From NCBI GenBank assembly GCA_036505535.1, contig DASXTI010000062.1:124585-188584 (forward strand): a stretch of DNA of 64,000 nt, in the 5' to 3' direction. The position numbers were made by a program, and so were the translations under genes. Origin of the DNA: Thermoanaerobaculia bacterium. GTDB lineage: Bacteria; Acidobacteriota; Thermoanaerobaculia; UBA5066; Gp7-AA6. Under the pieces are notes generated by a model. The model was not told the origin of the DNA and did no database searches. It saw only the letters and a program-made list of their open reading frames with translations. This document shows positions 4,855 through 48,296 of the stretch, piece after piece. The stretch's first letter is position 1. Every line of letters begins with the position of its first letter.

Positions 4855-4880
4855 GATATATAAGCATTTACTTATATATC
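4855..4880. repeat. AT-rich perfect palindrome GATATATAAG-cattta-CTTATATATC (copy 1 of 3)
   Basis: 10-bp perfect inverted arms with 6-nt spacer in a 70% GC background. Lies 24-50 nt upstream of the M20 peptidase start, downstream of the SLT gene stop. Confidence 0.8.
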
Positions 4881-4925
4881 ATCGGCGGCCGGGGCCTGTC
4901 GATTCTCGCACCGTGGCAGGGAGGC

Positions 4926-5666
4926 TTACGGGCGGGCGCCGGCGGCCACCGCCGACTCGCCCACCGGCGCCGCCTTCTCGGGAGGGGACGGGCGCCACCA
5001 GGCCATGATCCGGTTCACGTAGGAAACCGTCTCCCGGTAGGGAGGGACGCCGCCGTATGCCTCGACCGCCTGCTCGCCCGCGTTGTACGCGGCGAGGACC
5101 AGCTCGGGGTGAGGGCCGAAGCGCTCGACGAGCTCGCGGAGATACTGGACGCCGCCGCGCACGTTCGACGCCGGGTCGAAGAGTCTTCGTACGGACAAGC
5201 GCCGGGCCGTCGCGGGCATCAACTGCATGAGGCCGCGGGCGCCCTTGCGGGACACGGCGTGAGTTTCATAGTTCGACTCGGCCCGGACCAGCGCCGAGAC
5301 GAGGGAGGCATCGAGGTTCTGCTTCTTCGCCTCTCGGTCGATCAAGTCGTCGTAGGGAGACCCGAAAAGGGGTCGTCGCTCGGCCTGATACGAGAGGTCG
5401 TAGGCCGTCGTGAGCCGGGCGGGATCCTCCTGCACGATCACGGCCTCCAGGACGACCTCGTCGTCCACGATACGGTCCACACGAGAAAGGTCGACCCGGT
5501 AACTGCCGCCGCCCGGGAGGCTGATCTCGAGCTCCTCCGCGAGGAGGCGGTAACCGGCGGCCTTCACGACGCGGCCGTCTTCGAAAACGATGAGCTCCGC
5601 ATGGGCCGCGCGAACGCCGAGCGCGCCGGCGACGGCGAGGCTGGCGAGGAGGGAAAAACGGCGCAT
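4926..5666 (-). CDS. lytic transglycosylase, SLT domain, secreted
   Basis: Signal peptide MRRFSLLASLAVAGALGVRAAHA. SLT catalytic region (RAESNYETHAVSRKGARGLMQLMP, AAYNAG). Start chosen at Met138 of the track ORF, because the upstream part is Arg/Pro-rich shadow. Confidence 0.75.
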   Translation of the reverse strand: MRRFSLLASLAVAGALGVRAAHAELIVFEDGRVVKAAGYRLLAEELEISLPGGGSYRVDLSRVDRIVDDEVVLEAVIVQEDPARLTTAYDLSYQAERRPLFGSPYDDLIDREAKKQNLDASLVSALVRAESNYETHAVSRKGARGLMQLMPATARRLSVRRLFDPASNVRGGVQYLRELVERFGPHPELVLAAYNAGEQAVEAYGGVPPYRETVSYVNRIMAWWRPSPPEKAAPVGESAVAAGARP

Positions 5667-5716
5667 GCGAGAGGGCAAATCTACCGTTGCCGGCGCGCAT
5701 TCCGCCGCTCGAGGGT

Positions 5717-6667
5717 TCACTTCTCTATTTTCCCACGGCCGGGCCGGCGCGCGCGGGGGTGAAATTGGTCGTAGACCTTCCGGAGCCGGGATCGGGAGAC
5801 CTGGGTATAGACCTGAGTGGTCGAGATATCGGCGTGACCGAGCATCATCTGGAGCGCTCTCAGGTCCGCCCCGTGCTCGAGCAGGTGCGTCGCGAAGGAG
5901 TGGCGTAAGGCATGCGGCGTGAGAGGCTTCCGGATGCCGGCGGCGCGGCCGTACCCCTGGATGAGCTGCCAGAAGCGCTGGCGGGTCATCGCGGCCCCCC
6001 GGACGGAGAGAAAGAGGTGAGGCGCCCGCTTCGAGTCGAACCGCGGCCGGGCGGAGTCGAGATACCGCACGAGCCACCGCGCGGCCGAAGAGCCGAACGG
6101 AACGAGACGCTCCTTTCCCCCCTTCCCCTTCACGCGCAGGATGCCGGCCTCCAGATCCACCGCGTCGCGCGGCAGACCGACGATCTCCGATACTCGCAGT
6201 CCCGAGGCGTAGAGCAACTCCAGCATCGCGCGGTCGCGCAGGCCCAGAGGTTGAGTCGTGTCGGGAGCCTCCAGCAGGGCCTCCACCTCCCGCTCGCCGA
6301 GGCTCTTCGGCAGGGAGAGCCCGACCTTGGGATTGGCGATCTCGGCGGTCGGATCCTCGGAGAAGTTGAGGTGCGCCGCCGCGAAGCCATAGAAGCCCCG
6401 AACGGCGGATAAGGCCCGCGCGGCCGATCGCGAGGACAGCCCCCGCCCTCGCAGGGTTGTCATGTAGCGTCCGAGCTCGCCACGCCCGACGCGCGCCGCG
6501 TCGAGACGTCGCTCCGCGAGAAACCGGCCGAACGCCTCGAGATCGCTCCGGTATGCCGCGACACTCGCGCGCGCGAGCCCGCGCTCGACGGCCAAGTGAT
6601 CCAGGTACGTCGGGAGCTCTCGCCGCAGGAACTCGCTGTCGGCACCGGCCTTCCTCCAGACTGTCAC
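5717..6667 (-). CDS. tyrosine site-specific recombinase XerC/XerD family
   Basis: N-terminal SAM-like domain (LPTYLDHLAVERGLARASVAAYRSDL). Catalytic R..HxxR..Y block (LRHSFATHLLEHGADLRALQMMLGHADISTTQVYTQV). Start is uncertain: GTG at 6667 chosen to avoid overlap with the divergent DUF4242 gene. Confidence 0.75.
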   Translation of the reverse strand: MTVWRKAGADSEFLRRELPTYLDHLAVERGLARASVAAYRSDLEAFGRFLAERRLDAARVGRGELGRYMTTLRGRGLSSRSAARALSAVRGFYGFAAAHLNFSEDPTAEIANPKVGLSLPKSLGEREVEALLEAPDTTQPLGLRDRAMLELLYASGLRVSEIVGLPRDAVDLEAGILRVKGKGGKERLVPFGSSAARWLVRYLDSARPRFDSKRAPHLFLSVRGAAMTRQRFWQLIQGYGRAAGIRKPLTPHALRHSFATHLLEHGADLRALQMMLGHADISTTQVYTQVSRSRLRKVYDQFHPRARRPGRGKIEK

Positions 6668-6740
6668 GTTCCGGCCCGACGACTTTTGCAATGCGCCGTC
6701 CGCTTCCGTGCTAGAGTTCTCGCCCATCGGAGGAGAGCAG

Positions 6741-7013
6741 GTGCCCCGATTCGTCATCGAGCGCGACGTCGCGAACGTCGGCGACCTTTCCAACGCAGAA
6801 TTGGAAGCGATCTCTCGAAAATCGCTCGACGTCCTCAAGGAGATGGGACCCGCAATCCAGTGGCTTCACAGTTACGTCATCGACGACAAGATTTACTGCG
6901 TGTACATGGCCCCGGACGAAAACACCCTTCGCGAACACGCTAAGCGCGCAGGCATCCCCGCCAACCGGGTGTCCGCGGTCCGCCACATGCTCGATCCGAC
7001 GAACTACCAATAA
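6741..7013 (+). CDS. DUF4242-family small protein
   Basis: Matches the DUF4242 pattern (PRFVIERDV..G.S..ELEAI..KSLDVL..MG..IQWLHSYV.DDKIYCVYMAP.E..LREHAKRAGIPANRV). GGAGGAG SD 5 nt before GTG 6741. The antisense ORF 6711..7010 is judged a shadow. Confidence 0.6.
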   Translation: MPRFVIERDVANVGDLSNAELEAISRKSLDVLKEMGPAIQWLHSYVIDDKIYCVYMAPDENTLREHAKRAGIPANRVSAVRHMLDPTNYQ

Positions 7014-7022
7014 GGCCGGCTT

Positions 7023-10000
7023 TCAGCAAGAGGAATCCTCTTCCGCTCTGAGCGCCGACTCGATCGCCCGCTCCGGGGGCATGCTCCATCCATCGAGCCA
7101 CGCCGCGGACGCCGTCTCGTGCGGGAGCGCCCGCCGCGCCGGATCGAGGCTCGTCTCGAGCCTCGCCTGTTCGGTCGGCGGGAGGGGGGCGCCGATCGCC
7201 TGGCGGAGAGCCGCCGCGGCGCCCGCCAGACGCAGAGCGCGCGCCGGCTTACCCTGGGCGGCGGCCGAGCCGGCGAATCCCTCGAGCGCTCGGGCCACGC
7301 CTCGGTTCTGGTCGAGCTCCTGGAAGAGCCGGAGGCTCTCGCTGTAGGAGTGGGCGGCACCCGCATGGTTCCCCTCGTCGCGCGCCAGGTTTCCGAGGTC
7401 GGTGAGCGTGCCCGCCTCGCCCCAGACATCTCCGATCGCCCGGAAAGCGCCGAGACTCTCCTCGTAGAGAGCGCGCGCGCCCCCGAAATCGGACCGGTCG
7501 CGGGCGACGTCTCCCAGATGGTTCAACGACGCGGCCACCCCGCGGCGGTCTCCCAACTGGCGTGAGATCTCGAGGCTTTGCCGGTGGAGGGACTCCGCCT
7601 CGGTGAGGTTGCCCTCTCCCCTCGCCACGTTCGCCAGATTGGCGTAGGCGAACGCCACGGCCTCCCTGTTTCCGAGCTCCTGCCAGACGCCCAGGCTCTC
7701 CTCCAGGAACGAGCGGGCCGCTCCGTACTCCCTTTTGCGATAAGCCTGGACGCCGAGGCTGTTCAAGCTCGTCGCGACGGCCCAACGATTCTCGAGTTCG
7801 CGGGCGATCTCGAGGTGCTCCGTAAAAAGCGAGCGCGATGCGGCCCAGTCGCTCTGATTCTCGGCCAGAACCCCCGCGCCGAAGACGACCTTGGCGCGCA
7901 GCTCCCGCAGCGAAGTGCCTGCCGCCATCCGCAGAAGGCCTTGGAGCCACTGGCGCCCTTCGGTCGAATGCTCCCGAAGCTCCCAGAAGCGCCATAGCGC
8001 ACCTCCGAGGCGCAGTCCCCAGTCGGCGTTCCCGCTCTCAATCAGCCAGTGGAGCGCGGTTCGGAAGTTGTTCTGCTCCGCCTCGAACCGTCGGATCCAG
8101 GCGTCCCGCTCTCCGGAAGCGAGCTTCGCGTCCCCCTCCTCGGCGAGAACGACGCAGTAGGCGGCATGGGCCCGCCGCGTGGATTCTTCGTCCCCGCTCT
8201 CCGCAAGCCGCTCTAAGGCGTACTCGCGGATCGTCTCCAGCATCTGGAAGCGCCATTCGTCCCCGGAGCCGTGCTGTTGGAGCAGACTCTTGTCCACGAG
8301 CGACGCGACGACGTCGAGAACGTCGAGGGGAAGATCCTCTCGCGCGTTGGCGACCGCCTCCGCAGCCTCCAGCGTGAAGCCGCCGGCGAAGACGGCGAGC
8401 CGCCGGAAGAGCGTCCGCTCGGCACTTCCGAGAAGGTTCTCGCTCCATTCGATCGCGCCGCGCAGCGTCTGCTGGCGCGCCGGGAGGTCTCGCGATCCGC
8501 CCGTCAGTAGCCGCAGACGATGCTCCAGCCGCAGAAGTATCTCCCCGGGGGGCAGCATCTTGATTCGGGCGGCGGCCAGCTCCAGTGCCAGCGGGAGGCC
8601 GTCCAGCCGCACGCAGATCTCGGCAACGGCCCTCGCGTTCTCGCGCGTCAACGCAAAATCGGGCCGGACCGCGGCCGCACGCTCCAGGAAGAGCGCGACG
8701 GACGGACACCGAGTCAGCCGTTCCGGGTCGGATGACCCGAACGCATCGGGTAGGGCAAGGGGAGGAACCGGAAACTCGTGCTCACCATAGACGTGAATGG
8801 CCGACCGGCTCGTCGCGAGCAGTTTCATGTTTTGCGTCGAGGCGAGCAGCTCCGCGAGGGCCGCCGAACCTCCGGAGAGGTGCTCCAAATTGTCGAGCAG
8901 CACGAGCAGCGGCGCCCTCACGGCGTCGGCGAAGTGCCGCCGAAGAGCTTCCAGAGGAGACTCGCCGGTGGTCTCCCGAATGCCCAGGGCCTGGGCGACG
9001 CAGCCCGGGATCTGCCTCGCGTCGCCGATCGCGGCCAGCGGGACGAAGAAGGCGCCGCCGGCAAAGTGAGCCGCCGTGTCCCGAGCGACCTGGATCGCCA
9101 GCCGGCTCTTGCCTACTCCGGCCGGCCCGGTCAAAGTCACCAGGCGCACTCCCTCGCGCAGGAGAAGCTCCCCCGCCGCCACGGCTTCGCCGGACCGCCC
9201 GATCAAGGGGGTCCGCGGCTCCGGCAGGTTCGATCGAGGCTCGACGATCGCGCGAGGCCGATCGGTCAGGCGGTCCCGAACCGCCGCGAGATCGCGCGCG
9301 AGATCGCGGCTGGAGGCATACCGCTCCCCGGGATCCTTCGCGAGGCAACGCTGGATGACCCACTGCAGAGGGGCCGGCGTTTCGGGGGCGTACTGGCCAA
9401 TCGGCTCCGGTTCGTCCCGAATGATCGCGGAAAGCGTCTCCACCGCGGTATCGCGCTGGAACGCGCGGCGCCCGGTGGCCATCTCGTAGAGGATCGCGCC
9501 GAGCGCGAATTGATCGGACCGAAAGTCTACCTCGCGTCCCGTCGCCTGCTCGGGCGACATGTAGCTGACCGTGCCGAGGATCGTTCCCGGAGTGGTCTCG
9601 CGCGTCAAGGTGACGATCTGGGAAGGACCCCCGGAGAACGGAGCGAGCTTCGCGAGTCCAAAGTCGAGAATCTTGACGGCGCCGTCCCGTGTCAGCATGA
9701 GGTTGTCGGGCTTCAAGTCCCGATGAACGATGCCGACCTCGTGGGCGCGGGCCAATCCGTCCCCGATTTGACTCGCGATCGAGAGGAGCCTGCGACCTCC
9801 CAGCGGCCCGGCGGCGAGCACCTCGGAGAGCGTCGGGCCCTCGACCAGCTCCATGGCGATGTAGCCGGGCGCTTCGCTCAACTCGACGTCATAGATGGAA
9901 ACGATGTTGGGGTGACTCAGAGAGGATGCCGCGCGCGCCTCGTTGGTGAAGCGGCGAAGCCTCTCGCTGTCGCAAGCAGGATCGCCCGCCAGCACTTTCA

Positions 10001-10151: not shown

Positions 10152-10161
10152 CAAGCGAGCG

Positions 10162-11415: not shown

Positions 11416-11487
11416 AGCTGTCTTCTTCCAGAGAGAGTCTAATGCGGGGCGCCGGTCAGATCAACAAGGGCGGCGCCATTGCCCGCT

Positions 11488-12657: not shown

Positions 12658-12672
12658 CGCCCGCCGTCCTGC

Positions 12673-13455: not shown

Positions 13456-13459
13456 GCGC

Positions 13460-14642: not shown

Positions 14643-14666
14643 AGGCGGGCCGCTCTCGATCGAAGC

Positions 14667-15860: not shown

Positions 15861-15878
15861 CGAGAGCGGGAGTCTACC

Positions 15879-17534: not shown

Positions 17535-19400
17535 ATGGCAGGCAGGATGCTAGAAAAAATCGGCAAGTATGAGGTCTCCGAGCAGATCGGCGTCGGAGGT
17601 TTTGGCGCCGTCTACCGGGGCCGCGACCCGTTCATCAAACGTACGGTCGCCATCAAGACCTGTCAGGTCAACGACGAAGAGATCAAGCACCGGTTCTTTC
17701 GGGAGGCGGAGCTTGCGGGCAACCTCCACCATCGCAACATCACCACGATCTACGACTTCGGGGTGGAGAACGGCATTCCCTACATCGTCCAGGAGTTCTT
17801 GACCGGAGAGGATCTCGACAAGAAGATCAAGCGGGCCGAGCCCATTCCAATGGCCCGCAAGGTCGAGATTCTCATGGCCATCGCCGACGGCCTCGGATAT
17901 GCCCACAGCGCGAGCATCGTCCATCGCGACGTTAAGCCGGCCAACGTGCGCATCCTCGAGGACGGCACCGTCAAGATGATGGATTTCGGAATCGCCAAAT
18001 CGCTGCAGACCGAGTCGAACTTGACGCAGACAGGAACCACGCTCGGGACTTCCGCCTACCTCGCTCCCGAGCAGATCCGCGGCGAGCCACTCGACGGCCG
18101 GACCGACATCTTCGCCATGGGGGTCCTGGCCTACGAGCTTCTGACCCATCGCAAACCGTTTCGGGGCGAGCACCTCTCGACGGTTCTCTACAAGATCTTG
18201 AACGAGACGCCCGAGCCGATCGGCAGTCTCAGTCCGGACGCGCCGCCCGCTCTGGTCGCCGCTGTCAACCGCGCGATGGCAAAGACGCCCGCCGAGCGGT
18301 ACCCCACGATGGAGGCGTTCCGAAGGGACCTTCAGGCCGTTTACCGCGAGCTCCTCGGGAGTTCCGGCAAGTATCCGACGGCATTCGCGGACACCGGTCG
18401 AACGATCCGCACGGAGAGCTCCGAGGACCTCGAGACGACGCTGGCAACGCCGTCGAGCGGCGTCGCGCCGTCGAACATCACTCCCCCTTCGGGCGCACTG
18501 GCGCGGTCGCGCGCTCCCTCGGAGGCGACGCCGACTTCCGCCGGCATCGGGATCGGGGCTCGGCCTCCGCTCGAGCTCGTCAACTTCCGGGATCCCGGCG
18601 CGGACGCCGTCGCCGAAGAAGCGCCCCCCGGTTTGCGCCGGACCGCCGATACGCAGGTTGGAGTCAAGAAGACCCGTCTTGGGATCTTCGCCGCGATCCT
18701 GGTGCTCATCGCCGGTGCGGCGACCCTCCTGCTGAATCGTCCTCGCGAGGTCGCGCCGAAGCCGCCATCTCCGGCGCCCGTGCCCGCCGCGCCGACGGCC
18801 GCCCTGGAGTTCCCCGTGCCCAAGCTCGGTCAAGGCGAGCGGCCGGCGGCAAAGCCGCTTCCCGCCGAGGCGCCCCCGGCGACGGCACCTCTCCCGACGG
18901 CGGCCGCCGCGGCCCCCGCTCCCCCGCTCGAGAAACCGGTCGCGGTGGCCACCGCCAAGAAATACAAGGTTCAATTCAGCTCCGTGCCGATTGCGACCGT
19001 GTCGGTCGACGGGAAGCCGATCGGGCCCTCCATCCCCGCGCGCACTTTGCAGCTCGACGAGGGGGACCACAAGGTCCGCTTCGCGGCAAAAGGATTCCCC
19101 GCCTACGAGAAGGAATTTCACGTCAGCGGAAAGTCCGAGAACCGCATCCATTACCAGTTCCCCGTGACGATGCTCGTCATCGAGGCGCCGGGCTGGGCGG
19201 GCGCGCGCGTCCTCGTCGACGGTAAGTACAAAGGAATCCTCCCGGATGCTTCGCGCTTGAGACTCTCCGCCGGCTCCTACAACGTCACACTGTCGCGGGA
19301 CGGCGCCAATCCCGTCACCCAGAAGCTCACGCTATCGGAGGGAGCTCCGAAGACCTGGAATCCCCCACCGCCTTCTCCCGCGGGCCCGGGAGGCACCTGA
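17535..19400 (+). CDS. Ser/Thr protein kinase with single TM helix and C-terminal PEGA-like domain
   Basis: Hanks motifs (GVGGFGAVYRG, AIKTC, HRDVKPANV, DFGIAK, APEQ). TM segment FAAILVLIAGAATLLL. C-terminal KYKVQFSSVPIATVSVDGKPIG resembles a PEGA domain. Start at Met61 of track ORF (MAGRMLEKIGKYEV). Stop overlaps the next start (TGATG). Confidence 0.8.
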   Translation: MAGRMLEKIGKYEVSEQIGVGGFGAVYRGRDPFIKRTVAIKTCQVNDEEIKHRFFREAELAGNLHHRNITTIYDFGVENGIPYIVQEFLTGEDLDKKIKRAEPIPMARKVEILMAIADGLGYAHSASIVHRDVKPANVRILEDGTVKMMDFGIAKSLQTESNLTQTGTTLGTSAYLAPEQIRGEPLDGRTDIFAMGVLAYELLTHRKPFRGEHLSTVLYKILNETPEPIGSLSPDAPPALVAAVNRAMAKTPAERYPTMEAFRRDLQAVYRELLGSSGKYPTAFADTGRTIRTESSEDLETTLATPSSGVAPSNITPPSGALARSRAPSEATPTSAGIGIGARPPLELVNFRDPGADAVAEEAPPGLRRTADTQVGVKKTRLGIFAAILVLIAGAATLLLNRPREVAPKPPSPAPVPAAPTAALEFPVPKLGQGERPAAKPLPAEAPPATAPLPTAAAAAPAPPLEKPVAVATAKKYKVQFSSVPIATVSVDGKPIGPSIPARTLQLDEGDHKVRFAAKGFPAYEKEFHVSGKSENRIHYQFPVTMLVIEAPGWAGARVLVDGKYKGILPDASRLRLSAGSYNVTLSRDGANPVTQKLTLSEGAPKTWNPPPPSPAGPGGT

Positions 19401-21120: not shown

Positions 21121-21948
21121 TCCATCTCTCGCGCATATATCGCCGAGATCGAGGCATGGCGCGCGAAACGCCTGGAGCGACTGCGCGCCGAAGACGGCTG
21201 GCCAACCGTCGTCGGTCTCTTCTGGCTGGAGGAGGGGGAAAACCCGGTCGGCAGCGCCTCCGGCAATCGAATCGTTCTGCCCGCGGGGAAGGCGCCTCCC
21301 GTCCTGGGCTCGATCGATCTCTCGCATGGTCGGGTGAGCCTTCGTGTCCGTCCCGGCGCGGACGTGCACGTAGATGGCAAGAGGGTCAAACAGGCGACGC
21401 TCTCCTCCGACGCGGACGGCCAACCGACGGTCGTGACCTATGGAACGCTTCGCTTCTATCTGATCGAGCGCGTGGGCCGTCTGGCCGTGCGCGTCAAGGA
21501 CAGCGCGAGCGAGGCGCGGCGCCGGTTCCACGGCCTCGACTCCTTTCCGATCGACCCGGCCTGGCGCCTCGAGGCGCGGTTCGAGCCCTACGATCCGCCG
21601 AATTCGATAGCTGTCCCCAACGTGCTCGGCGCCGTCGACTCGGAGAGATCGCCTGGGGCGATCGTCTTCGAGTACGGCGGCAAAGCGTACCGGCTCGACT
21701 CCGTGCTGGAGAAAGGCGAGATCGACTATTTCGTCATCTTCGGCGACCGCACGAATGGCGCGGAGACCTATGGAGCGGGACGCTTTCTCTACGTCTCCCC
21801 GCCCGCCGGCGGAAAGACCGTCATCGACTTCAACAAGGCCTACAACCCTCCCTGCGTCTTCACGCCCTATGCGACATGCCCGCTGCCGCCTCTGCAGAAC
21901 AAACTGCCGATTCGGGTCGAGGCCGGAGAGAAGGCGTATGAGCATTAG
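21076..21948 (+). CDS. DUF1684 domain protein
   Basis: Conserved DUF1684-like N-terminus (AYIAEIEAWRAKRLERLRAEDGWPTVVGLFWLEEG) and C-terminal CxF..Y..CPLPP motif. Confidence 0.75.
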   Translation: MTTPPPETRDQKPGTSISRAYIAEIEAWRAKRLERLRAEDGWPTVVGLFWLEEGENPVGSASGNRIVLPAGKAPPVLGSIDLSHGRVSLRVRPGADVHVDGKRVKQATLSSDADGQPTVVTYGTLRFYLIERVGRLAVRVKDSASEARRRFHGLDSFPIDPAWRLEARFEPYDPPNSIAVPNVLGAVDSERSPGAIVFEYGGKAYRLDSVLEKGEIDYFVIFGDRTNGAETYGAGRFLYVSPPAGGKTVIDFNKAYNPPCVFTPYATCPLPPLQNKLPIRVEAGEKAYEH

Positions 21949-22079
21949 TCGACAGTCGACAGTCGACAGTCGACAGTTGGGAGACGCAAGGCGGGCGAAA
22001 CATATAAGTAACTACTTATATGTTAGGCACCTCCGGCTATCGACTGTTGACTCTAGACTGTTGACTCTTGCCTCCCAAC
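21949..22079. repeat. composite convergent-terminator element: 4x GTCGACA tandem, AT palindrome CATATAAGTA-ac-TACTTATATG (22001-22022), inverted GTCAACAG copies
   Basis: Tandem tcgacag x4 at 21949-21977. Downstream revcomp partner cgactgttgactctagactgttgactc, with ttgggag/ctcccaa outer stem. AT palindrome copy 2 sits in the loop. Confidence 0.8.
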
Positions 22080-22661: not shown

Positions 22662-23770
22662 GGGCGCGGCTTCCCTCAGCGGCGGACCGCAGAAACGCCT
22701 CGATGAAGGGGGTTAGATCCCCGTCGAGGACGCGATCGGTGTCGCCGGTCTCGAACCCCGTGCGGTGATCTTTTACCATCCGATAGGGATGGAGAACATA
22801 CGAGCGGATCTGGCTTCCCCACTCGATCGACTTCTTGTCGCCGACGCGTTTCTCCTCCTCGGCCCGCCGCTCATCGAGAGCGCGCTGGTAGAGGCGAGCT
22901 CTCAGAACGCGCATCGCCATCTCGCGGTTGCGGCCCTGACTCCGTTCGTTCTGGCACGTCACGACGATTCCGGTGGGCAGGTGCGTCAAGCGAACCGCGG
23001 AATCGGTCACATTCACGTGCTGACCGCCGGCCCCGCTGGATCGGTACGTGTCGACGCGAAGGTCCTTGTCGTCGATCTCGATCTCGATGTCCTCGTCGAT
23101 TTCGGGAGACACGAACACCGATGCGAACGAGGTATGGCGCCGCTGGGCGGAGTCGAAGGGCGATATCCGGACGAGCCGGTGGACCCCCATTTCCCCCTTC
23201 AAATACCCGTAGGCGTGGTCGCCGACGACGTGGAGAGTGGCGCTCTTCAACCCCGCTTCTTCGCCGTCCTGCCGCTCGATCAATTCGGCCTTCCAGCCGC
23301 GGGACTCCGCAAAGCGCATATACATGCGGAGCAACATCTCAGCCCAGTCCTGCGACTCCGTTCCACCGGCGCCCGCGTGAATCATCAGCCATGTGTTCTT
23401 GGCATCGTCGGGAGACCCCATCTTGACGGCGAGCTCGAGCTCGTCGGCGAAGGTTCCGGCCGCGGCCAGCGTGGCGCGGGCATCGCCTTCCGCCGGCTCC
23501 CCTTCTCGAAGAAGTTCGGAAAGAGCTTCGAGCTCGCTGAGGAGCTCGTCGACGCGACCGGCGGTCTCGAACTTCCTCTCGACGCCGCGCGTCTCGCGCA
23601 GAACCTCCTGCGCTTCCTCCGGACGGGACCAGAAATCGGCCGCGGAGGCCTTTTCCTTCAGAAGCGAGAGCGCGCTCCGCGCCGCATCCAGATCAAAGGT
23701 AGCCCCGAAGCGCGGTCAGGCGCTCCGAGGCGGCCTTCAGGGAGGCGAGAAGATCGTCGCGTTCGGTCAT
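22651..23770 (-). CDS. prfB: peptide chain release factor 2 with programmed +1 ribosomal frameshift
   Basis: ORF-1 [25 protein letters not shown] ends at in-frame TGA. The +1 frame continues [15 protein letters not shown]... into track ORF 22651..23421 ([24 protein letters not shown] motif). Internal SD-like GGGGC before CTT TGA T. Start ATG overlaps lnt stop (ATGA). Confidence 0.85.
23690..23700 (-). promoter_or_regulatory. prfB +1 frameshift site (CTT TGA T on coding strand)
   Basis: Plus strand atcaaaggtag = minus strand CTA CCT TTG AT. Codon 26 is UGA preceded by CUU, as in the canonical RF2 autoregulatory site. Confidence 0.8.
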
Positions 23771-29002: not shown

Positions 29003-29905
29003 GTGCGCATCCGACCGACAGAAGCGATCCATTTCGCGGCCCTGGGAGTTCTGACGACGCTGGCGGTCCTCGTGCGCGGCCGGCTCGCCGATCCCTCGGG
29101 ACTGCTCCGCCGCTATGGCGCTCTGGCCGTCTGCCTTCTGGTCATCGCAGCGCTCGCGCGCCGCATCGACCGCCTCCCCGCCGCGCTTCAGATTCTGGTC
29201 GACTTCTACCCTGCCGCGCTTCTGCCTATCCTGTTCAACACACTCGAGCCGTTGATCGAAGCGTCGCGCGGAGACGCGCGCGACCGGATACTGATTGCCG
29301 CCGACCGAGCCATCTTCGGCGTCGACGTCACCGTCTGGCTACAGCGGCTGGCACACCCGTGGTTGAGCGACCTGATGTTCGTCTTCTACGCGACCTACTA
29401 CTTCATCGCGCTCACGCTCGGCGCGATCCTCTGGGCGCGGAACCGGGCAACCGCCCGCCGCTTCATCTTCACGCTCATGGTCGTCTATTACGTCTCGTAC
29501 GCCGGTTATTTCACGATTCCCGCGCACGGGCCCCGGTCGGCGCAGTCCTCCGAGTACACCGTGTCGCTCACGACGACGCCCGTCTCGAATGCGATCTCCG
29601 AAACGATCGACAGCCTGGAGAAGACGAAGTTCGACGTCTTTCCTTCGGGTCACACGATGGTGGCCGTGGCCGTGCTCCTGGTGGCCTGGAGGCAGGCACG
29701 CCGCGCTTTCTGGCTCCTGCTGCCGGTCGCCTCCGGCCTCGTCATATCGACGGTTTACTGCCGGTATCACTATGCCGTCGACGTGATCGCCGGGACGCTG
29801 CTGGCGTTCGTGACGGTACCCATCGGAGACTGGGTCTACGACAAACTCGCGGGGAGGTTTGATTTCGTAGGGGCGGGGGTGAACGCCGGCCGTTGGCCGG
29901 CGTAG
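29003..29905 (+). CDS. PAP2-superfamily integral membrane protein (phosphatase/headgroup transferase-like)
   Basis: Six predicted TM helices. PAP2 motifs PSGHT and CRYHYAVDV (H..D). GTG start. Confidence 0.7.
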   Translation: MRIRPTEAIHFAALGVLTTLAVLVRGRLADPSGLLRRYGALAVCLLVIAALARRIDRLPAALQILVDFYPAALLPILFNTLEPLIEASRGDARDRILIAADRAIFGVDVTVWLQRLAHPWLSDLMFVFYATYYFIALTLGAILWARNRATARRFIFTLMVVYYVSYAGYFTIPAHGPRSAQSSEYTVSLTTTPVSNAISETIDSLEKTKFDVFPSGHTMVAVAVLLVAWRQARRAFWLLLPVASGLVISTVYCRYHYAVDVIAGTLLAFVTVPIGDWVYDKLAGRFDFVGAGVNAGRWPA

Positions 29906-30047
29906 CCTACTGTCGTGGGCCTGCCGCTGGTGGTCGGCTTGTCCCCGCTCGCGGGCGGCCGCGAGCCGACCGCCGGAGTTAAACCCTCAGCAGTAGGCAA
30001 CGCCGGCGTTAGCCGGCGGTCACGGCCGCCCCTCCAGCGGTAGGAGC
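29906..30047. terminator. GC-rich nested stem-loops between convergent PAP2 and GNAT genes
   Basis: gcctactg...cagtaggc outer pair, ggtcggc..gctcgcg ggcggc cgcgagc..gccgacc inner hairpin, cgccggcgttagccggcg second hairpin. No U-tract. Confidence 0.5.
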
Positions 30048-35711: not shown

Positions 35712-35714
35712 TCG

Positions 35715-39038: not shown

Positions 39039-39064
39039 CGCGCCGGGTTATAGCATGGAGATCG

Positions 39065-39829
39065 ATGCCGGCCATCGAGTCGCCGTCCAATCCTCTGATC
39101 CGGGAGATCGTGCGCCGCCTCGAAGAGAAGACGCATCTCTTACTCGAGGGGGAGAAAACGATACTGGACGCCGTGGGGGCGGGGATCCCGCTCGATTGTG
39201 TCCTCTACGACGCGAGTATTCGCCCGGGCCGGCTCGCGGCGCTGACTTCCGCTCACCCTCGCCTCGTTTCGCGCGCGGTGCTCGAGCGCCTTGCCGACTC
39301 GCACACGCCGCAACACCTTCTGGCCGTGGCCCGCCGACGCGACGTTCCCGTCGCGGAGATCCTGGCGCGCCCCGGACCCATCGTGTTCCTCTTCGGCATT
39401 CAGGATCCCGGCAACCTCGGCGCTATCGTCCGGGTTGCGGAGGCGGCAGGCGGCGCCGGGGTCCTGGGGGCTCCCGGAACGGCCGATTTCTTTCATCCAC
39501 GCGCCATTCGCGCAAGCGCCGGCAGCGCCCTCCGCATACCCGTCTCCGGGCGCGTCTCTTTCGAGCCCTTCGCGGCGGACGCGAAGGCCGCGAGCCGTCC
39601 CATTTGCGGCGCCGTGGCGGAGGGAGGCGAAGATCCCTTCGAAGGGCCTCTCTCACCGGCTTCCGTCCTCGTCGTCGGCGCCGAGGGCTTCGGCCTTCCC
39701 GCCGGCGCGTATCGATACCTCGACCGGAAGCTGACGATCCCGATGCGAGAGCCTGTCGACTCGCTCAACGCCGCCGTGGCAGTGGCGTTGCTGCTGTACT
39801 CGCCGGCGCTGCGTAAACAGGAGAATTGA
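39065..39829 (+). CDS. SpoU/TrmH-family RNA 2'-O-methyltransferase
   Basis: SPOUT motifs (VFLFGIQDPGNLGAIVRVAEAAG, LVVGAEGFGL, DSLNAAVAVALLLY). Confidence 0.8.
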   Translation: MPAIESPSNPLIREIVRRLEEKTHLLLEGEKTILDAVGAGIPLDCVLYDASIRPGRLAALTSAHPRLVSRAVLERLADSHTPQHLLAVARRRDVPVAEILARPGPIVFLFGIQDPGNLGAIVRVAEAAGGAGVLGAPGTADFFHPRAIRASAGSALRIPVSGRVSFEPFAADAKAASRPICGAVAEGGEDPFEGPLSPASVLVVGAEGFGLPAGAYRYLDRKLTIPMREPVDSLNAAVAVALLLYSPALRKQEN

Positions 39830-39909
39830 AGATTGATGATTGAAGATTAACGATTGAAGGTCAATGGTCTCGCCCCAATCGACAATCGTCAATCGGCAAT
39901 CGTCAATTC
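39823..39909. repeat. GATTG-core heptamer inverted array (5x NGATTGA then 5x CAATCGN)
   Basis: gaattga agattga tgattga agattaa cgattga ...loop... caatcga caatcgt caatcgg caatcgt caattc. Starts within the trmH stop codon. Confidence 0.8.
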
Positions 39910-40019
39910 TTCTTCCTGCCCTTCCGTTTCTTTTCGCCCGGTCTCGTCTTGAGCCGTGGAGCCTGATAGACCCTCTTCGGCGCCACGACCTTCTTCTGCC
40001 GGTTTCCGATTCCTTTCAT
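39903..40019 (-). CDS. candidate 38-aa Lys/Arg-rich small protein (MKGIGNRQKKVVAPKRVYQAPRLKTRPGEKKRKGRKKN)
   Basis: ATG overlaps AMMECR1 stop as ATGA. GAGGTG SD 9 nt upstream. Terminator-like heptamer hairpin immediately downstream. Confidence 0.3.
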   Translation of the reverse strand: MKGIGNRQKKVVAPKRVYQAPRLKTRPGEKKRKGRKKN

Positions 40020-40573
40020 TCCGAGAACACCTCTGCGCGAAACGCCCAGAGACGCGTTTCCGGATGCGCCCACGCCCGCGGGGGGAGGCCCGCCTTTTTC
40101 GATAGCTCCTGGAGAAAACGCTCTCGATCGAAGCCCCACTCCGTGGCGACCTGGGGCAGGAGCAAGCCTCTCCGCCCGAATGCCTCGATGATCAACCCGT
40201 CGCTACCGATCTCGATCTCCCCGAGCCCTTCGATGGACCGCGGCGCCGTTAAGACCGAGATTTCGATCGAGCACTCTTCCAGCTCGCTGGCTTCGAGCGG
40301 CGCGAAGCGCGGGTCCTCGAAAGCCGCGCGCAGCGCGTATTCGGAGATGACCCGCGTCAAGTCCCCCGCGGGCGCCAGCGTCCCGATGCAGCCCCGGAGC
40401 TGGCCGCGCTTCCGAAGCGTCACGAAGAGCCCGCGAGGCGTGCCGAAGGTCTCGGCGCGGTCGGAAGACAACCGGGGCGCGGGCTGACCCCGGAAATGCG
40501 CCTCGAGCGTGCCGCGGGCCAAACGCAGCAGGTCGGCGCGAGCCTCGTCGGAGAGCGGGGCGTCCGAGCTCAC
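40016..40573 (-). CDS. AMMECR1-domain protein
   Basis: Conserved LRGCIG and LLLPQVA motifs of the AMMECR1 family. Confidence 0.85.
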   Translation of the reverse strand: MSSDAPLSDEARADLLRLARGTLEAHFRGQPAPRLSSDRAETFGTPRGLFVTLRKRGQLRGCIGTLAPAGDLTRVISEYALRAAFEDPRFAPLEASELEECSIEISVLTAPRSIEGLGEIEIGSDGLIIEAFGRRGLLLPQVATEWGFDRERFLQELSKKAGLPPRAWAHPETRLWAFRAEVFSE

Positions 40574-41202: not shown

Positions 41203-41332
41203 CACGGACTGGAGCCTGCCTGCCACGGACTCGCGTCCTCCGGTTGGCGAAACGCCGATCTCATCGTATCCTTCCCGCCGTCTTCCTTGAGGCGAGCCCG
41301 CCCAGGCGAAGCCACAAGGACAGGAGAACACG

Positions 41333-42391: not shown

Positions 42392-42395
42392 AAGG

Positions 42396-42493
42396 GAATT
42401 GGCGATTGCCGATTGGTGATTGGTGATTGCCGATAGACACGGTCGATCGTCTCAATCACAAATCACAAATCACCAATCTCAAATCTCCAATCC
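42396..42493. repeat. GATTG-core heptamer inverted array (5x GATTGNN then 6x NNNAATC)
   Basis: attggc gattgcc gattggt gattggt gattgcc ...loop... ctcaatc acaaatc acaaatc accaatc tcaaatc tccaatc. Confidence 0.8.
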
Positions 42494-42520
42494 CCTAGGT
42501 GCCGGGCTCCGCCTGCTACC

Positions 42521-43438: not shown

Positions 43439-43448
43439 CCATACCGAA

Positions 43449-43515
43449 GGTTTCTGGTTCCTGGTCTCTGGTTACTGGTTGAAGAGAGAGAACCAGAAAC
43501 CAGAAACAAGAAACC
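43449..43515. repeat. CTGGTT-core heptamer inverted array (4x NNNCTGG then 3x AACCAGA)
   Basis: tttctgg ttcctgg tctctgg ttactgg tt ...gaagagagag... aaccaga aaccaga aacaaga aacc. Between convergent genes. Confidence 0.8.
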
Positions 43516-43519
43516 CTTT

Positions 43520-44455: not shown

Positions 44456-44925
44456 GGTGTCCTTTCAGGAGCGTAATCGAAGGAGGAAGTTGTCAGCACG
44501 AAGGTCGCCAGGGCCCGCGCGACTTCTCGCCCGGTACCATCGACGATCTCGACCTCTCCGACATTGACACGCTTTCCTTTCTTGAGGATTCGCGCCCGCG
44601 CCAGGACCTCCCCCTTGGCCCGGTGCAGGAAGTGGACCGTCAAGTCCGCGGTCGCGAATCCCATCTTTCCGTCGAAATTCGTGGCCAGCGCAAACGCCAC
44701 CGCGGAGTCCGCGAGGGTGGCGAGCACTCCTCCGTGCACGGTCCCCGACCCGTTGGTGGTCTCCTCCCGGTACGGCAGTCGAAGGACGCAGTGGTCGAGG
44801 GAAAGCTCCTCCAGGCTCGGGCGCAGCCAGCCCAGAGCGGGCGAGTCGGCGAGGCGTTTCCGCAGGCGCTGCAGAAGGTCGGGGGCAAGCCCGCGAGCCT
44901 CCTGCGTGGCCGTTTGAAGGCTCAC
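44452..44925 (-). CDS. PaaI-family hotdog thioesterase
   Basis: TVHGGVLATLADSA motif. ATGA overlap with NYN gene. Confidence 0.8.
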   Translation of the reverse strand: MSLQTATQEARGLAPDLLQRLRKRLADSPALGWLRPSLEELSLDHCVLRLPYREETTNGSGTVHGGVLATLADSAVAFALATNFDGKMGFATADLTVHFLHRAKGEVLARARILKKGKRVNVGEVEIVDGTGREVARALATFVLTTSSFDYAPERTP

Positions 44926-44966
44926 GAAGGCTCTATTCTAAGCGATTCGGGGCCGGCCCTGTCGGC

Positions 44967-45242
44967 TCACTCCGGCGGCTCTTCGGGCTCTTCTTCCCGG
45001 CTGTAGTAAGGGAGCTCCTCGGCCCGGCGCGTCGAGTTGTCCAGATGCTTCGGGACCTCCAGGATCGTGCGCGTCACGTTGGGATCGCAGATCTCGTTCT
45101 CGCACTCGTACGTGTAGATGTTCTTATCCCCGGCTTTCCGGAACTTCACGATCGCCTGGTAGGAGTCGCAGTTGCCACACTTGACCGACATCATGAAGAT
45201 GTCGATGACGTGCAGATCCGGACGCTCCTCGGACGACGACAT
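44967..45242 (-). CDS. small zinc-ribbon protein with acidic C-terminus
   Basis: CGNC...YECENEIC cysteine pairs. Start chosen at MSSSEERPDL; the upstream Arg-rich part was rejected. Confidence 0.4.
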   Translation of the reverse strand: MSSSEERPDLHVIDIFMMSVKCGNCDSYQAIVKFRKAGDKNIYTYECENEICDPNVTRTILEVPKHLDNSTRRAEELPYYSREEEPEEPPE

Positions 45243-45276
45243 CGCGGCAATGATACGCTTCGCACGCGAGGTGAAC

Positions 45277-45729
45277 ATGAGGAGTCGGCTTTCGCTCCTG
45301 GCGGCTCTTCTCCTCGCCGCCACCCCCCTCCTCGGGGATGACGGGCGTTTCGAGAAGACCATTGCTTTTCCCCGGAGCGGCGATCAGAAGCTGGACTGGA
45401 CCCATCAGAGGTGCACGATCCGGAGCGTTCAGGTGCGCAACTATCCGGACTCGGAGGACATCGAAAAGGCGCGCCAGAGAGACCCGAGCGACAAGTCATG
45501 GCTCTGGTGGGAGTTCCACATCGACAACCGCGGTGACAGGGACTGCAAGGTCAAACTCTGGATCGAGGTCCTGGACAAGAACGGGAAGGTCGTCAAGGCA
45601 GACGATCGGAGCGGCACAGTCGACGCCGGCAAGATCGACGACGCGATTCGAGTCTCCGGGCGCATGCGCACCATCGACGCCGCCGATTCGCCGAAGGTGC
45701 GGGTCCGTGGCGAGATCATCCCGAAGTAG
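45277..45729 (+). CDS. hypothetical secreted protein
   Basis: Signal peptide MRSRLSLLAALLLAATPLLG. Charged beta-rich mature part. Divergent from the zinc-ribbon gene. Confidence 0.45.
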   Translation: MRSRLSLLAALLLAATPLLGDDGRFEKTIAFPRSGDQKLDWTHQRCTIRSVQVRNYPDSEDIEKARQRDPSDKSWLWWEFHIDNRGDRDCKVKLWIEVLDKNGKVVKADDRSGTVDAGKIDDAIRVSGRMRTIDAADSPKVRVRGEIIPK

Positions 45730-45741
45730 CTCCGGCCCGCG

Positions 45742-46665
45742 ATGACCGTTGCGCCCGAGCAGACGTCGGACCCATTCGACTACGCCGCGGTTCTTTCGCG
45801 CCTCGCTCACCGCCACCGCGACTCCGGCGTGATCTCGCTGGAAGGCGCCGACCGAGTGGCGTTCCTCCAGGGGCAACTCACTCAGGACGTCGGCACGCTA
45901 GCGACCGGGCATTCCCGCCCCACGGCGGGCTTAACGCCGAAGGGGAAGCTCCTCTACTTCGGAAGCGTCGTCGCGCTCCCGGATCGAATGCTGCTGCTCA
46001 TTCCCGGTTCCCGCCGCGCCGCCGTCGCCGCGCACCTGTCGAAGTACGCCGTCTTTCAGAAAGTAAGCATTCGCGATGCTTCGGAGGAGTTTTTTCGCAC
46101 GGCTCTCTATGGTCCGCTGGCCGCGTCCATCGCGGCTCCCGCCGGCGGAATCCGGCTTCCCGCGGAAGGAGAGCTCGCCGGCGAGATCCTCGCTCCGGCC
46201 CCCCTGCGCGCCGAGCTCGAGGGGCGGCTCGACGAGGCGGGATCGATCGTCGTCGGGCCCCACACCGCGGAGATTCTTCGCGTCGAGGCGGGGCGGCCGC
46301 GGTTCGGGCAGGACGCGGACGAATCGAACCTTCCCGACGAGGTGGGCCTCCAGAGCGCCATCTCGACGACCAAGGGCTGCTACGTGGGGCAGGAAATCGT
46401 GGCCCGACTGCGAACCTACGGGCGCGTCAATCGGCGCCTCGTCGGCTTCCGGTTTCCGAAGAGCGCCGTGCCGGCCGGGACGGCCTTTCCCAATCCGGAA
46501 AAACCGGATCATGAGCTCGGCCGCGTCACGAGCGCCGTCATTTCTCCGCGTTTCGGCTCGATCGGCCTCGGTTTCGCGTTCCGCGAGATCCCGGAGGGGG
46601 CCGAGCTCGCGGCGGCCGGCCGACCGGACCAATGTGCCGTCGTGGCTCCTCTCCCCTTCGCGTGA
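45742..46665 (+). CDS. YgfZ-family folate-binding protein (GcvT-like)
   Basis: Conserved TKGCYVGQEIVARL motif and GcvT-fold N-domain. Confidence 0.8.
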   Translation: MTVAPEQTSDPFDYAAVLSRLAHRHRDSGVISLEGADRVAFLQGQLTQDVGTLATGHSRPTAGLTPKGKLLYFGSVVALPDRMLLLIPGSRRAAVAAHLSKYAVFQKVSIRDASEEFFRTALYGPLAASIAAPAGGIRLPAEGELAGEILAPAPLRAELEGRLDEAGSIVVGPHTAEILRVEAGRPRFGQDADESNLPDEVGLQSAISTTKGCYVGQEIVARLRTYGRVNRRLVGFRFPKSAVPAGTAFPNPEKPDHELGRVTSAVISPRFGSIGLGFAFREIPEGAELAAAGRPDQCAVVAPLPFA

Positions 46666-47573
46666 GCGCCCGCCCCGAGGCGCGCTCCTGGGAGATCCAT
46701 CTCGCGCTCATCGGGGCCCAGACGGGGTTCGCCCTCTTTCCGATCTTCGGCAAGCTCGCGCTAGCCTCGATCGGCCCCTTTCCCTTCGCCGCCTTCCGCG
46801 TCGTGGCGGCCGCGACGCTGCTCGAGGGGATCCGTCGCGTTGGCCCTCGCGAGGAGATCCGGCGTGCCGATCGGCCCCGGATATTCTTCTACGGCCTTCT
46901 CGGCGTCTCCTTCAATCAACTGCTCTTCATCTTCGGACTCTTCTTCACGACGGCGATCGCCACCAGCATCTTGACCGCGACGATTCCAGTCTTCACGCTT
47001 GCCGCGGCCGTCATGCTCGGGCGCGAACGCATGACCGGCCGCGCCGCCGCCGGTATCGTCCTGGCGGGGGGCGGAGCGCTCGCGCTCTTGAACGCGCAGC
47101 GGTTCGACCTCGGGAACACGTCCTTCCGCGGGGATCTACTGCTGCTCGCCAACGCGACCTCGTATTCGCTCTATCTTGTGCTTTCGCGACCGGTCCTCGC
47201 GCACTATCGTGTTGCCACCTTCACCGCGGCCGTCTTCCGCTACGGTGCCGTATTCATCGTGCTCGTCGCTCTGCCGGCGCTTCGGCGGTTCGAGCCCTCG
47301 CGAGTCACGTCGCTGGCCTGGGGTTCGCTCGTGGCGGTCATCCTCTTCTGCACCGTCTTCCCCTACCTCGCGAACTCGTGGGCTCTCGCCCGCACCCATG
47401 CATCGCACGTCGCCTTCTACGTCTTCCTTCAGCCCCTCATCTCGACGGTCCTCGCGATCCTCATCCTGGGCGAGGCGCTGACGAAGAGGACGTTGCTCGC
47501 GGCGATCCTGATCCTTGCTGGCCTCGGCGTGGCGGTGGCCAGGGGGCGTCTGCCGGCTCGCCCGCTGCCATGA
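46662..47573 (+). CDS. EamA/DMT-family transporter
   Basis: 10 TM helices in two EamA repeats. GTGA overlap with ygfZ stop and ATGA overlap with GT2 start. Confidence 0.75.
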   Translation: MSARPEARSWEIHLALIGAQTGFALFPIFGKLALASIGPFPFAAFRVVAAATLLEGIRRVGPREEIRRADRPRIFFYGLLGVSFNQLLFIFGLFFTTAIATSILTATIPVFTLAAAVMLGRERMTGRAAAGIVLAGGGALALLNAQRFDLGNTSFRGDLLLLANATSYSLYLVLSRPVLAHYRVATFTAAVFRYGAVFIVLVALPALRRFEPSRVTSLAWGSLVAVILFCTVFPYLANSWALARTHASHVAFYVFLQPLISTVLAILILGEALTKRTLLAAILILAGLGVAVARGRLPARPLP

Positions 47574-48280
47574 AGAACGGCCGGCCGCGCGTCGCCGTGC
47601 TCATTCCTGTCTTCAACGAGCGCGAATCCCTCCCGCTCGTCGTCGCCGCGATTCCGAAGGCGGTCGTCGACGAGATCGTCGTCGTGGACAACGGCTCGAC
47701 CGACGGCACCGACGCGATTGCCCGGGATCTTCCGGTACGCCTGGTGCGGGAGCGACGGCGGGGCTACGGCAGCGCGTGCCTCGCCGGCGTCGAGGCGTTG
47801 GGGGGGACGCCCCCGGACGTGCTGGTCTTTCTAGACGGCGATTTTTCGGATCACCCCGACGAGATGCCGCGCCTGCTCGAGGCGATCGCGGAGGGCGCGG
47901 ACCTTGTCATCGGATCCCGGACTGCCGGCCGGCGGGAACGCGGAGCGCTGGCGCCCCAGGCGCGCTTCGGAAACGTGCTCGCCTGCCTCTTGATCCGGCT
48001 CCTGTACGGCTACCGGTACACGGACCTGGGTCCCTTCCGTGCGATCCGCTGGGAGGCCTACCGGCGGCTCGGCATGGAGGACACCGATTTCGGCTGGACC
48101 TCTGAAATGCAGGTCAAGGCCGTGCGCCGCGGGTTGCGGGTTGCGGAGGTTCCCGTTTCCTATCGGCGGCGCGTGGGCGTATCGAAGATCACGGGCACGC
48201 TCGCCGGAAGCCTCCGTGCGGGCGCCAAGATCCTGTGGACGATCGTCCGATACGGCATTGGGAGGTCGCGCAATATATAA
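47570..48280 (+). CDS. family-2 glycosyltransferase (polyprenol-phosphate sugar transferase-like)
   Basis: VLIPVFNERE, VVDNGSTDGT, FLDGDFSD (DxD) motifs. N-terminal 2/3 of track ORF 46076..48280 is shadow. Confidence 0.85.
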   Translation: MKNGRPRVAVLIPVFNERESLPLVVAAIPKAVVDEIVVVDNGSTDGTDAIARDLPVRLVRERRRGYGSACLAGVEALGGTPPDVLVFLDGDFSDHPDEMPRLLEAIAEGADLVIGSRTAGRRERGALAPQARFGNVLACLLIRLLYGYRYTDLGPFRAIRWEAYRRLGMEDTDFGWTSEMQVKAVRRGLRVAEVPVSYRRRVGVSKITGTLAGSLRAGAKILWTIVRYGIGRSRNI

Positions 48281-48296
48281 GCATTCACTTATATAT
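48273..48296. repeat. AT-rich palindrome ATATATAAG-cattca-CTTATATAT (copy 3) containing both convergent stop codons
   Basis: TAA of the GT2 gene (48278-48280) and TAA of the minus-strand ABM-like gene (48289-48291) lie in opposite arms. Confidence 0.8.

Follow-up and report, generated by a model that had tools for sequence, protein, structure and literature searches.

Among the described systems, the operators of the ArsR/SmtB family (the SmtB/CzrA/CadC layout) come close to the element reported here: like it, they are imperfect 12-2-12 inverted repeats with A+T-rich outer ends, and the known sites are read by a winged-helix dimer. Dyad-symmetric DNA can also be a target for mobile elements and recombinases, as in the 24-bp palindromic hot spot of IS30 and in the 12-2-12 crossover sites of serine recombinases (hix/gix). 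In cyanobacteria, arrays of heptamers (short tandemly repeated repetitive sequences, STRR) reportedly carry nested small dispersed repeats (SDRs); these are said to be palindromic modules of about 20-27 nt that sit in inverted heptamer arrays, contribute to long intergenic hairpins and vary by presence or absence between relatives. One such module, SDR5, inserts precisely into the HIP1 palindrome. Repetitive extragenic palindromic sequences (REPs), together with bacterial interspersed mosaic elements (BIMEs) and REP doublets forming hairpins (REPINs), are multi-copy, lineage-specific and short, lie downstream of genes or between convergent genes, and are documented as preferred targets of insertion sequences (ISs) (PMC1525189). 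Here we describe an A+T-rich palindrome present in three copies, called sites 1 to 3, in a stretch of 64 kb (64,000 nucleotides of contig DASXTI010000062.1, hereafter the window) from a Thermoanaerobaculia bacterium of the phylum Acidobacteriota. We propose, with moderate confidence, that these copies are a small REP-like dispersed palindromic module that has the sequence of an ArsR operator, was gained recently as orphan copies, and bears a hot spot of insertion at its center.

The data covered the window and scattered contigs of the lineage, of its relatives and of other genomes. All three copies in the window share the 20-nt core ATATAAG-N6-CTTATAT, and, when extended, every copy is a 12-2-12 inverted repeat, to which no strand is assigned. 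Site 1 occupies 4855-4880 (GATATATAAGCA-TT-TACTTATATATC), with ATATAAG at 4858-4864, the spacer CATTTA at 4865-4870 and CTTATAT at 4871-4877. Site 2 occupies 21999-22024 (AACATATAAGTA-AC-TACTTATATGTT), with its core at 22002-22021 and the spacer TAACTA at 22009-22014, and site 3 occupies 48272-48297 (AATATATAAGCA-TT-CACTTATATATC), with its core at 48275-48294 and the spacer CATTCA at 48282-48287. Apart from one G/C pair, the arms are made of A+T only, and they carry no tetranucleotide tag. An earlier note on this DNA had placed the three copies correctly, and the pattern that it gave for them was slightly too strict: copy 2 reads CATATAAG, not TATATAAG. The 2-nt spacer that it assigned to copy 2 results from reading this site as 9-2-9; the spacer of the shared core is 6 nt in all three copies.

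The pattern TATAAG-N0-12-CTTATA was matched three times in the window, compared with 0.00 expected from 100 dinucleotide shuffles, and the half-site ATATAAG occurred six times, compared with 0.39 expected, with all six occurrences inside the three palindromes. These shuffles, together with the recurrence of the palindrome in other contigs of the lineage, practically exclude a chance origin, which the earlier note had already called negligible; the GC content of the window is 66%, not the 70% on which that note had relied. Degenerate copies were absent from the window at up to three mismatches over the 14 arm positions. When five copies, the three of the window and two from another Thermoanaerobaculia metagenome-assembled genome (MAG), were aligned with 200 nt of flanking DNA, the invariant columns were confined to a core of about 24 nt, in which the 14 arm positions were the same in all five copies and the six central positions varied. 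Beyond about 26 nt, the flanks could not be aligned. This alignment had been proposed as the test for a larger MITE (miniature inverted-repeat transposable element), and the outcome was negative: a larger MITE is ruled out because the flanks of the copies are unrelated, and no target-site duplication was visible. Between site 1 and the common site 3 allele, 25 of 26 positions were identical, and two loci elsewhere in the lineage (L052 and L124) carried the same 26-mer at different places. Within genomes, the copies look, from their sequences, to be related by descent.

The palindrome was also found far outside this lineage. With ATATAAGYAWYYACTTATAT as the pattern, at least 115 loci were found in a collection of one genome per species, and with ATATATAAGYANNYACTTATATAT, metagenome contigs gave 76; these counts do not equal abundance, and a JGI contig carrying copy 1 was itself missing from the metagenome scan. 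Only loci of at least 55% GC were used to analyze the neighboring genes, matches in A+T-rich genomes being uninformative. Among the matches listed, there were 62 distinct sites above this threshold, and at 39 of them a gene encoding the ArsR recognition helix S/T-Q-P-A-V/I/L-S-Q-H-L started beside the motif and pointed away from it. At least eight further sites had an ArsR gene with SQPAISQHV or one cut by the contig end, and two more preceded the AHSA1/SRPBCC partner gene that is typical of such operons. All eight motif-linked regulators tested matched Pfam HTH_5/HTH_20 (ArsR family), and the nearest solved structures of motif-linked regulators were likewise ArsR-family proteins (among them 3f6v, SrnR, Rv0081, BigR, SmtB and NolR). 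The hosts included Bradyrhizobium, Comamonadaceae, Nisaea, Terracidiphilus, Phycisphaerales, Dehalococcoidia, Christensenellaceae and Micrarchaeota, among others, and related ArsR boxes were present within Acidobacteriota (L038, L047 and L091).

At least 48 distinct ArsR-adjacent sites with the exact core were found in dozens of unrelated genomes from many phyla, at 0-30 nt before the repressor gene, and their layout was stereotyped. The palindrome overlapped the -10 element; a -35-like TTGAC(A/T/G) box ended 2-3 nt before ATATAAG (25 of 48 sites by regular expression and several more by eye); the distal arm provided the -10 (TTATAT), often with TG just before it (TGcTTATAT, an extended -10); and the start codon followed 7-12 nt past the palindrome. 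This layout argues that the palindrome is a widespread autoregulatory operator of the ArsR/SmtB type, with the dyad expected of a dimeric winged-helix protein. A literature search did not find the motif in any ArsR paper. At four loci in Nitrospirales/Nitrospinae (L113, L084, L049 and L055), the motif precedes a Gp49/HigB-like toxin gene and not an ArsR gene, so that the palindrome may also serve one or more regulator families besides ArsR. ATATAAGTA is, in addition, the nonamer of yeast mitochondrial promoters, which we take to be a coincidence. Two observations concern metagenome sequences. In L183, L178 and L174 (about 52% GC, an unrelated organism), the palindrome tips a long perfect hairpin (AAAAAGCTTCGAAGCTTGTGAAGCT, palindrome, AGCTTCACAAGCTTCGAAGCTTTTT) that is followed by a T-run and is terminator-like. 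Positions 1-85 of L136 form a perfect long inverted repeat centered on the palindrome at the contig end; this is probably a fold-back assembly artifact and calls for caution with metagenome contigs that end at such palindromes.

The copies in the window differ from these operators in their surroundings. When 14 motif-linked ArsR proteins were used in tblastn, no ArsR-family gene was found in the window, where the best match had E = 0.08, and the 152 kb of lineage loci gave no match at E <= 1e-3; the cognate regulator for which the earlier note suggested a search near the copies was thus not found in the window. A weak match at 40445-40558 was rejected as an ArsR gene, the open reading frame (ORF) there being AMMECR1-like. 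None of the six flanks of the three sites contained a -35-like box, and consensus scans for promoters and terminators returned nothing at the three sites apart from one weak internal match. Unlike the known operators, the copies have neither an adjacent ArsR gene nor a -35 box, they are placed at the 3' ends of genes or between two stop codons, and relatives do not keep them at the corresponding loci. We concluded that they are not classical operators, since class membership fails on promoter context and regulator adjacency. As to the earlier suggestion of an operator for a dimeric protein, the sequence class stands (at least 48 ArsR-adjacent sites) and the role at this locus does not.

Site 1 is the only copy that could plausibly double as a promoter. 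It is flanked by two minus-strand genes: an SLT-domain gene, whose stop (4926) precedes it by 45 nt, and an M20 peptidase gene, whose ATG (4831) follows it after 23 nt. The earlier note was accurate in placing it just upstream of the M20 start. Read on the minus strand, it contains TGcTTATAT, an extended -10-like element that faces M20 and lies 26 nt before its ATG. The idea that copy 1 serves as a -10 element or operator gains from this extended -10 and loses from the lack of a -35 box. The core of site 1 on that strand, ATATAAGTAAATGCTTATAT, recurs unchanged in the ArsR promoters at L061, L072, L089 and L109, which likewise have no -35 and rely on TGcTTATAT. Concerning the M20 gene itself, its longest ORF (480 aa) starts at an ATG at 4867 on the minus strand, inside copy 1. 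The ATG at 4831 is preceded by a Shine-Dalgarno sequence and gives a 468-aa product that is present in Logan and JGI contigs and is not listed under NCBI; the deposited annotation of M20 may start elsewhere.

These promoter data bear on the possibility of a regulon, in which an ArsR-family repressor encoded elsewhere would bind all copies in trans, repress an M20 promoter at site 1 and act as a roadblock or insulator at sites 2 and 3. Such a role would agree with the identity between the palindrome and ArsR autoregulatory sites of the proven type, including the promoters without -35 that site 1 resembles, with the perfect arms and the lack of degenerate copies in the window, and with the related ArsR boxes in Acidobacteriota. 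However, two of the three sites fall between stop codons, a setting in which a promoter would be unexpected, close relatives have none of the three at the orthologous loci, and no regulator was detected in the window or in the 152 kb of lineage loci. The lack of degenerate sites also speaks against a regulon, in which such sites are usual. We regard this explanation as possible but doubtful.

The other two sites in the window are found between convergent genes. Site 2 caps a long hairpin of heptamer arrays between the DUF1684 and NUDIX genes, as the earlier note had described, and this hairpin has an RNA fold of -69 kcal/mol (z = -8.6). Site 3, as was also seen before, supplies the TAA stops of both of its neighbors, a GT2 glycosyltransferase gene on the plus strand (48278-48280) and a gene for an ABM-fold protein on the minus strand (48289-48291). 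Seven independent copies that are not ArsR-adjacent are available from the lineage: sites 1-3, L004, L052 (= L158), L124 (= L192) and L118, of which L004 and L052 come from MAG SMAG_U4693. All seven lie downstream of a gene, four in a convergent and three in a co-directional (tandem) arrangement, and none is between divergent genes. This bias to gene 3' ends, which is stated without a baseline for the intergenic classes because the gene caller used was too crude for one, is a trend and not proof.

A position that is always downstream of a gene might indicate an element acting at the RNA level, in which a transcribed A-U hairpin would terminate or stabilize transcripts arriving from both directions. 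Together with their flanks, the palindromes indeed form more stable hairpins than shuffled sequences do (-12 to -17 kcal/mol, with z of about -3 to -5.6). But the stems are almost pure A-U and have no U-tract, no terminator-like site was found at any of the three loci, the window has no Rfam match, and before ArsR genes the same sequence acts at the DNA level. An intrinsic terminator or a known RNA is ruled out by the A-U stems, the absence of terminator-like sites and the absence of Rfam matches, and we consider any RNA-level explanation extremely improbable. The earlier proposal of a 3'-end element fits the positions of the copies and finds no terminator features at the three loci. The contrast between arms and spacer does not discriminate between RNA and DNA, as both predict fixed arms and a free loop and there is no arm variant in which compensation could be scored.

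A dif/Xer site was another candidate. Such a site has an 11-6-11 structure and occurs once per chromosome, at the replication terminus. That the palindrome is a dif/Xer site beside an XerD-like gene was ruled out by the presence of three copies in 64 kb and by a cumulative GC skew that is monotonic without a switch, and also by relatives that keep the XerD-like gene without the palindrome.

The closest available relatives (76-82% protein identity) were without all three palindromes at the orthologous loci. At the site 3 locus of L196, where the ABM protein is 81% identical and the order ABM><GT2 is kept, the absence of the palindrome is a clean indel of about 28 nt, and there is a 38-nt overlap between the two genes; the palindrome is likewise absent there from L195 and L194. 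At the site 2 locus of L200 (76% identical, synteny kept), the genes are 33 nt apart, and the DNA between them holds a plain GC hairpin and neither arrays nor palindrome. At the site 1 locus of L206/L207 and L208/L209 (77% identical), a small gene on the opposite strand lies between SLT and M20 instead. No palindrome copy, at up to four mismatches, and no half-site were found in about 60 kb of the relatives' DNA. Among conspecific contigs, copy 1 was intact in L001 and L002, site 3 had the spacer CATTTA in L205 and L210-L212, and sites 1 and 3 were intact in every contig. The comparison with relatives indicates that the copies in this lineage are young or unstable.

Site 2 had a different history in conspecific contigs. 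Contigs with a 100% identical DUF1684 (L197 and L199) or NUDIX (L201-L204) match the window across the heptamer array and up to the end of the first arm, beyond which they diverge. In these six metagenome contigs, which come from four samples (3300036863, 3300036864, 3300036860 and 3300036854) and cover both junctions, site 2 is split at its dyad. The rebuilt plus strand reads GCGAAAT ATATAAG TAACTA (GAGACTGTGTGA ... TCACACAGTCTC) TAACTA CTTATAT GTTAGG, where the parentheses enclose an inserted element with terminal inverted repeats (TIRs) TAGAGACTGTGTGA(A/G)AA, placed exactly at the palindrome center (window 22009-22014). The duplication can be parsed in three ways, as 6 bp (TAACTA), as 4 bp (AACT, with ends AGAGACTG) or as 2 bp (AC, with ends TAGAGACTG). 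The element has three types of end (A, B and C), and the combination A...B was found in sample 3300036863 and C...A' in sample 3300036864, which suggests that site 2 was occupied at least twice independently. The element-bearing stretches are L197 3938-4016, L199 2386-2504, L201 3616-3739, L202 1705-1770, L203 1533-1687 and L204 1224-1251. Each of the six contigs breaks off after 60-225 nt of element sequence, which is what a multi-copy repeat should cause. No match to the element ends was found in the window, in the other loci, in viral contigs or in plasmids, and the sequenced element tails contained no ORF.

The center of the palindrome is also where conspecific sequences differ. Thirteen conspecific contigs aligned over 19,664 window positions gave 23 single-nucleotide polymorphism (SNP) positions, a background of 0.10%. 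Three of the SNPs fell within the 18 spacer nucleotides (22011, 22014 and 48286) and none within the 42 arm nucleotides (binomial P = 8.5e-7); a fourth, at 22001, abuts an arm. In L205, the sole difference from the window in 1.9 kb lies in the site 3 spacer. In this lineage, both insertion and elevated change strike the palindrome center, whereas the arms are fixed.

An insertion exactly at the dyad raises the question of whether the palindrome is, first of all, a target for recombination or transposition. It would then be an attB-like 12-2-12 site with a central crossover, recognized by the recombinase or transposase that belongs to the TAGAGACTGTGTGA element; its likeness to ArsR operators would be secondary. 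A 12-2-12 arrangement with a non-palindromic central dinucleotide matches the sites of serine recombinases, and IS30-type elements prefer palindromic hot spots. In both of these systems, as at site 2, a dyad-symmetric site is broken and joined at its center, the element ends are symmetric and a short central duplication is made. That at least two combinations of element ends occur at the same site in different samples, and that the spacer is fixed in length and hypervariable in sequence, would also be accounted for. On the other hand, the arms of the element (..CAGTCTCTA) are unlike those of the palindrome, the comparison of the inserted element with these systems is made by its ends alone, and only one of the three window sites has been seen occupied, sites 1 and 3 being intact in all contigs. 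The origin of the target copies themselves is also left unexplained by this alternative, which we therefore judge unlikely.

The hairpin at site 2 is built from a left array at 21947-21977 (plus strand, AGTCGAC x4.4) and a right array at 22042-22068 (plus strand, GACTGTTGACTCTA x1.9), which is inverted and degenerate and pairs with the left one. The number of units varies by strain, with five in L199 and four in the window. Four of the seven lineage copies abut heptamer arrays, and the units differ: GTCGACA at site 2, GTTGAGA in L052, a GAGAACG-like unit in L124 and (CCGCCTA)x11 in L118. Hairpins of this kind consist of a tandem heptamer array followed by its inverted array, are intergenic and use a different unit at each locus. 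In the window, they lie at 21947-22068, 39825-39907, 42398-42492, 43449-43515 and 62758-62826, with a single array at 62416-62449; at other loci, they were located at L118 1995-2059 and 8173-8248, at L192 4929-4999, 6531-6615 and 8669-8730, and at L194 2404-2453. Convincing heptamer hairpins were present in the window, L118, L192 and L194 and absent from L200 and L206-L209; arrays and palindrome therefore occur in the same sub-lineage. The link between palindrome and heptamer hairpins that had been raised as a possibility is supported, with four independent loci in this sub-lineage having both.

The anatomy of a module within a heptamer array, seen at site 2, L052/L158, L124/L192 and L118, with a further element nested in the site 2 palindrome, resembles what is reported for the cyanobacterial SDR/STRR system. 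The organism is different, however, being a member of the Acidobacteriota, and so is the sequence of the module, which is here identical to a transcription-factor operator. The comparison with very small cyanobacterial dispersed repeats in heptamer arrays leads to a further alternative, namely that each copy is a minimal non-autonomous transposon, a MITE reduced to its TIRs, in which the 7-12 bp arms would be mobilized in trans and the spacer would be a dispensable interior. The indel polymorphism at site 3, the near-identical 26-mers at different loci, the nesting in heptamer-array hairpins at four loci and the restriction to one lineage together with the arrays are what such an element might produce. 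Yet a target-site duplication is visible at no copy, no transposase is known for ends of 7-12 bp, and the identity to ArsR operators would have to be a coincidence. We think this explanation very unlikely.

The REP-like reading, which we prefer, has its own limits of likeness. REPs, which are rare in divergent promoter regions, are G+C-rich, bear a GTAG/CGTC tag, number in the hundreds and are associated with REP-associated tyrosine transposases (RAYTs), whereas the copies in the window have A+T arms and no tag. Membership in REP proper fails on composition and on the GTAG tag. What the two share, beyond position and lineage specificity, is IS targeting, exemplified here by the TIR element at the site 2 dyad in six conspecific contigs, and a REP-type extragenic palindrome is the closest functional analogy. 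The palindromes are best filed as ArsR-box-like, A+T-rich dispersed extragenic palindromes that constitute an insertion hot spot.

In the REP-like reading, each copy would be a dispersed palindromic module of 20-26 bp. Its fixed 7-bp arms, ATATAAG and CTTATAT, would be the half-sites of a dimeric, sequence-specific DNA-binding protein, with a 6-bp center that is free to vary. The most likely reader would be an ArsR-type winged-helix dimer encoded elsewhere in the genome, because the same sequence serves ArsR/SmtB-family repressors as autoregulatory operator and -10 across phyla. The module may have been gained recently, judging from the relatives compared, as units of about 26-28 bp downstream of genes and at the tips of heptamer hairpins, and the copies would have spread as small units. 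The dyad center would be a hot spot of DNA breakage and rejoining, where the TAGAGACTGTGTGA element integrates with a duplication of 2, 4 or 6 bp. The copies would thus behave like REP-type extragenic palindromes, as largely selfish or neutral landing pads, with effects on the host that are probably incidental: the provision of both stops at site 3, a possibly repressible extended -10 promoter of M20 at site 1 and a hairpin tip at site 2.

Several points weigh against this proposal. The ArsR reader in this organism is deduced from other phyla. We know of no transposase or other route by which a 26-bp unit could spread. The indels relative to the relatives could be losses instead of gains. The bias to gene 3' ends rests on seven sites and is not significant alone (roughly P~0.1), and the copies were counted in 64 kb and scattered contigs only, which gives no genome-wide number. 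Moreover, the absence of decayed copies and the strict conservation of the arms could just as well reflect a host function under purifying selection. A bolder version can be formulated, in which an ArsR operator escaped from its promoter in one Thermoanaerobaculia sub-lineage and spreads as a module of about 26 bp into the 3' ends of genes and the tips of heptamer hairpins, serving both as a repressor-bound bidirectional roadblock or insulator and as a dedicated landing pad of the TIR element, and forming a new class of REP-like micro-elements outside cyanobacteria and proteobacteria; we offer it tentatively and think it improbable in this full form.

Other features were noted along the window. 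The gene prfB (release factor 2) carries, at about 23680-23700 on the minus strand, the classical programmed +1 frameshift site GGGG-cta-CCT-TTG-A (CTT TGA), because of which gene callers split prfB into a 256-aa product. At 29896-30007, between convergent genes that end at 29905 and 30048, there is a 56-nt imperfect inverted repeat (71% complementary) with GCCTACTG...CAGTAGGC within it; this repeat is distinct from the heptamer arrays and from the A+T palindrome. At 18900-18908, the window differs from contigs L197/L198 by an indel of one 9-nt repeat unit (GCGGCCGCC-like), which falls within the ORF upstream of a TPR gene; the product of this region, cut at the locus edge, has Pkinase/PEGA matches in L197.

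For annotation, the palindromes carry a warning, as they create stop codons and false starts, for example the 480-aa M20 ORF that begins inside copy 1. In practical terms, they could be used to test protein roadblocks at convergent gene ends, as the 20-bp site is defined and there is a candidate family of regulators. If the proposal is true, perfect arms around a hypervariable center can flag sites of recurrent DNA breakage and rejoining, and a transcription-factor operator can disperse as a tiny repeat and be re-used as a chromosomal address for mobile DNA. It would also mean that REP-like biology and its link to heptamer hairpins, which has so far been mainly cyanobacterial, exist in Acidobacteriota.

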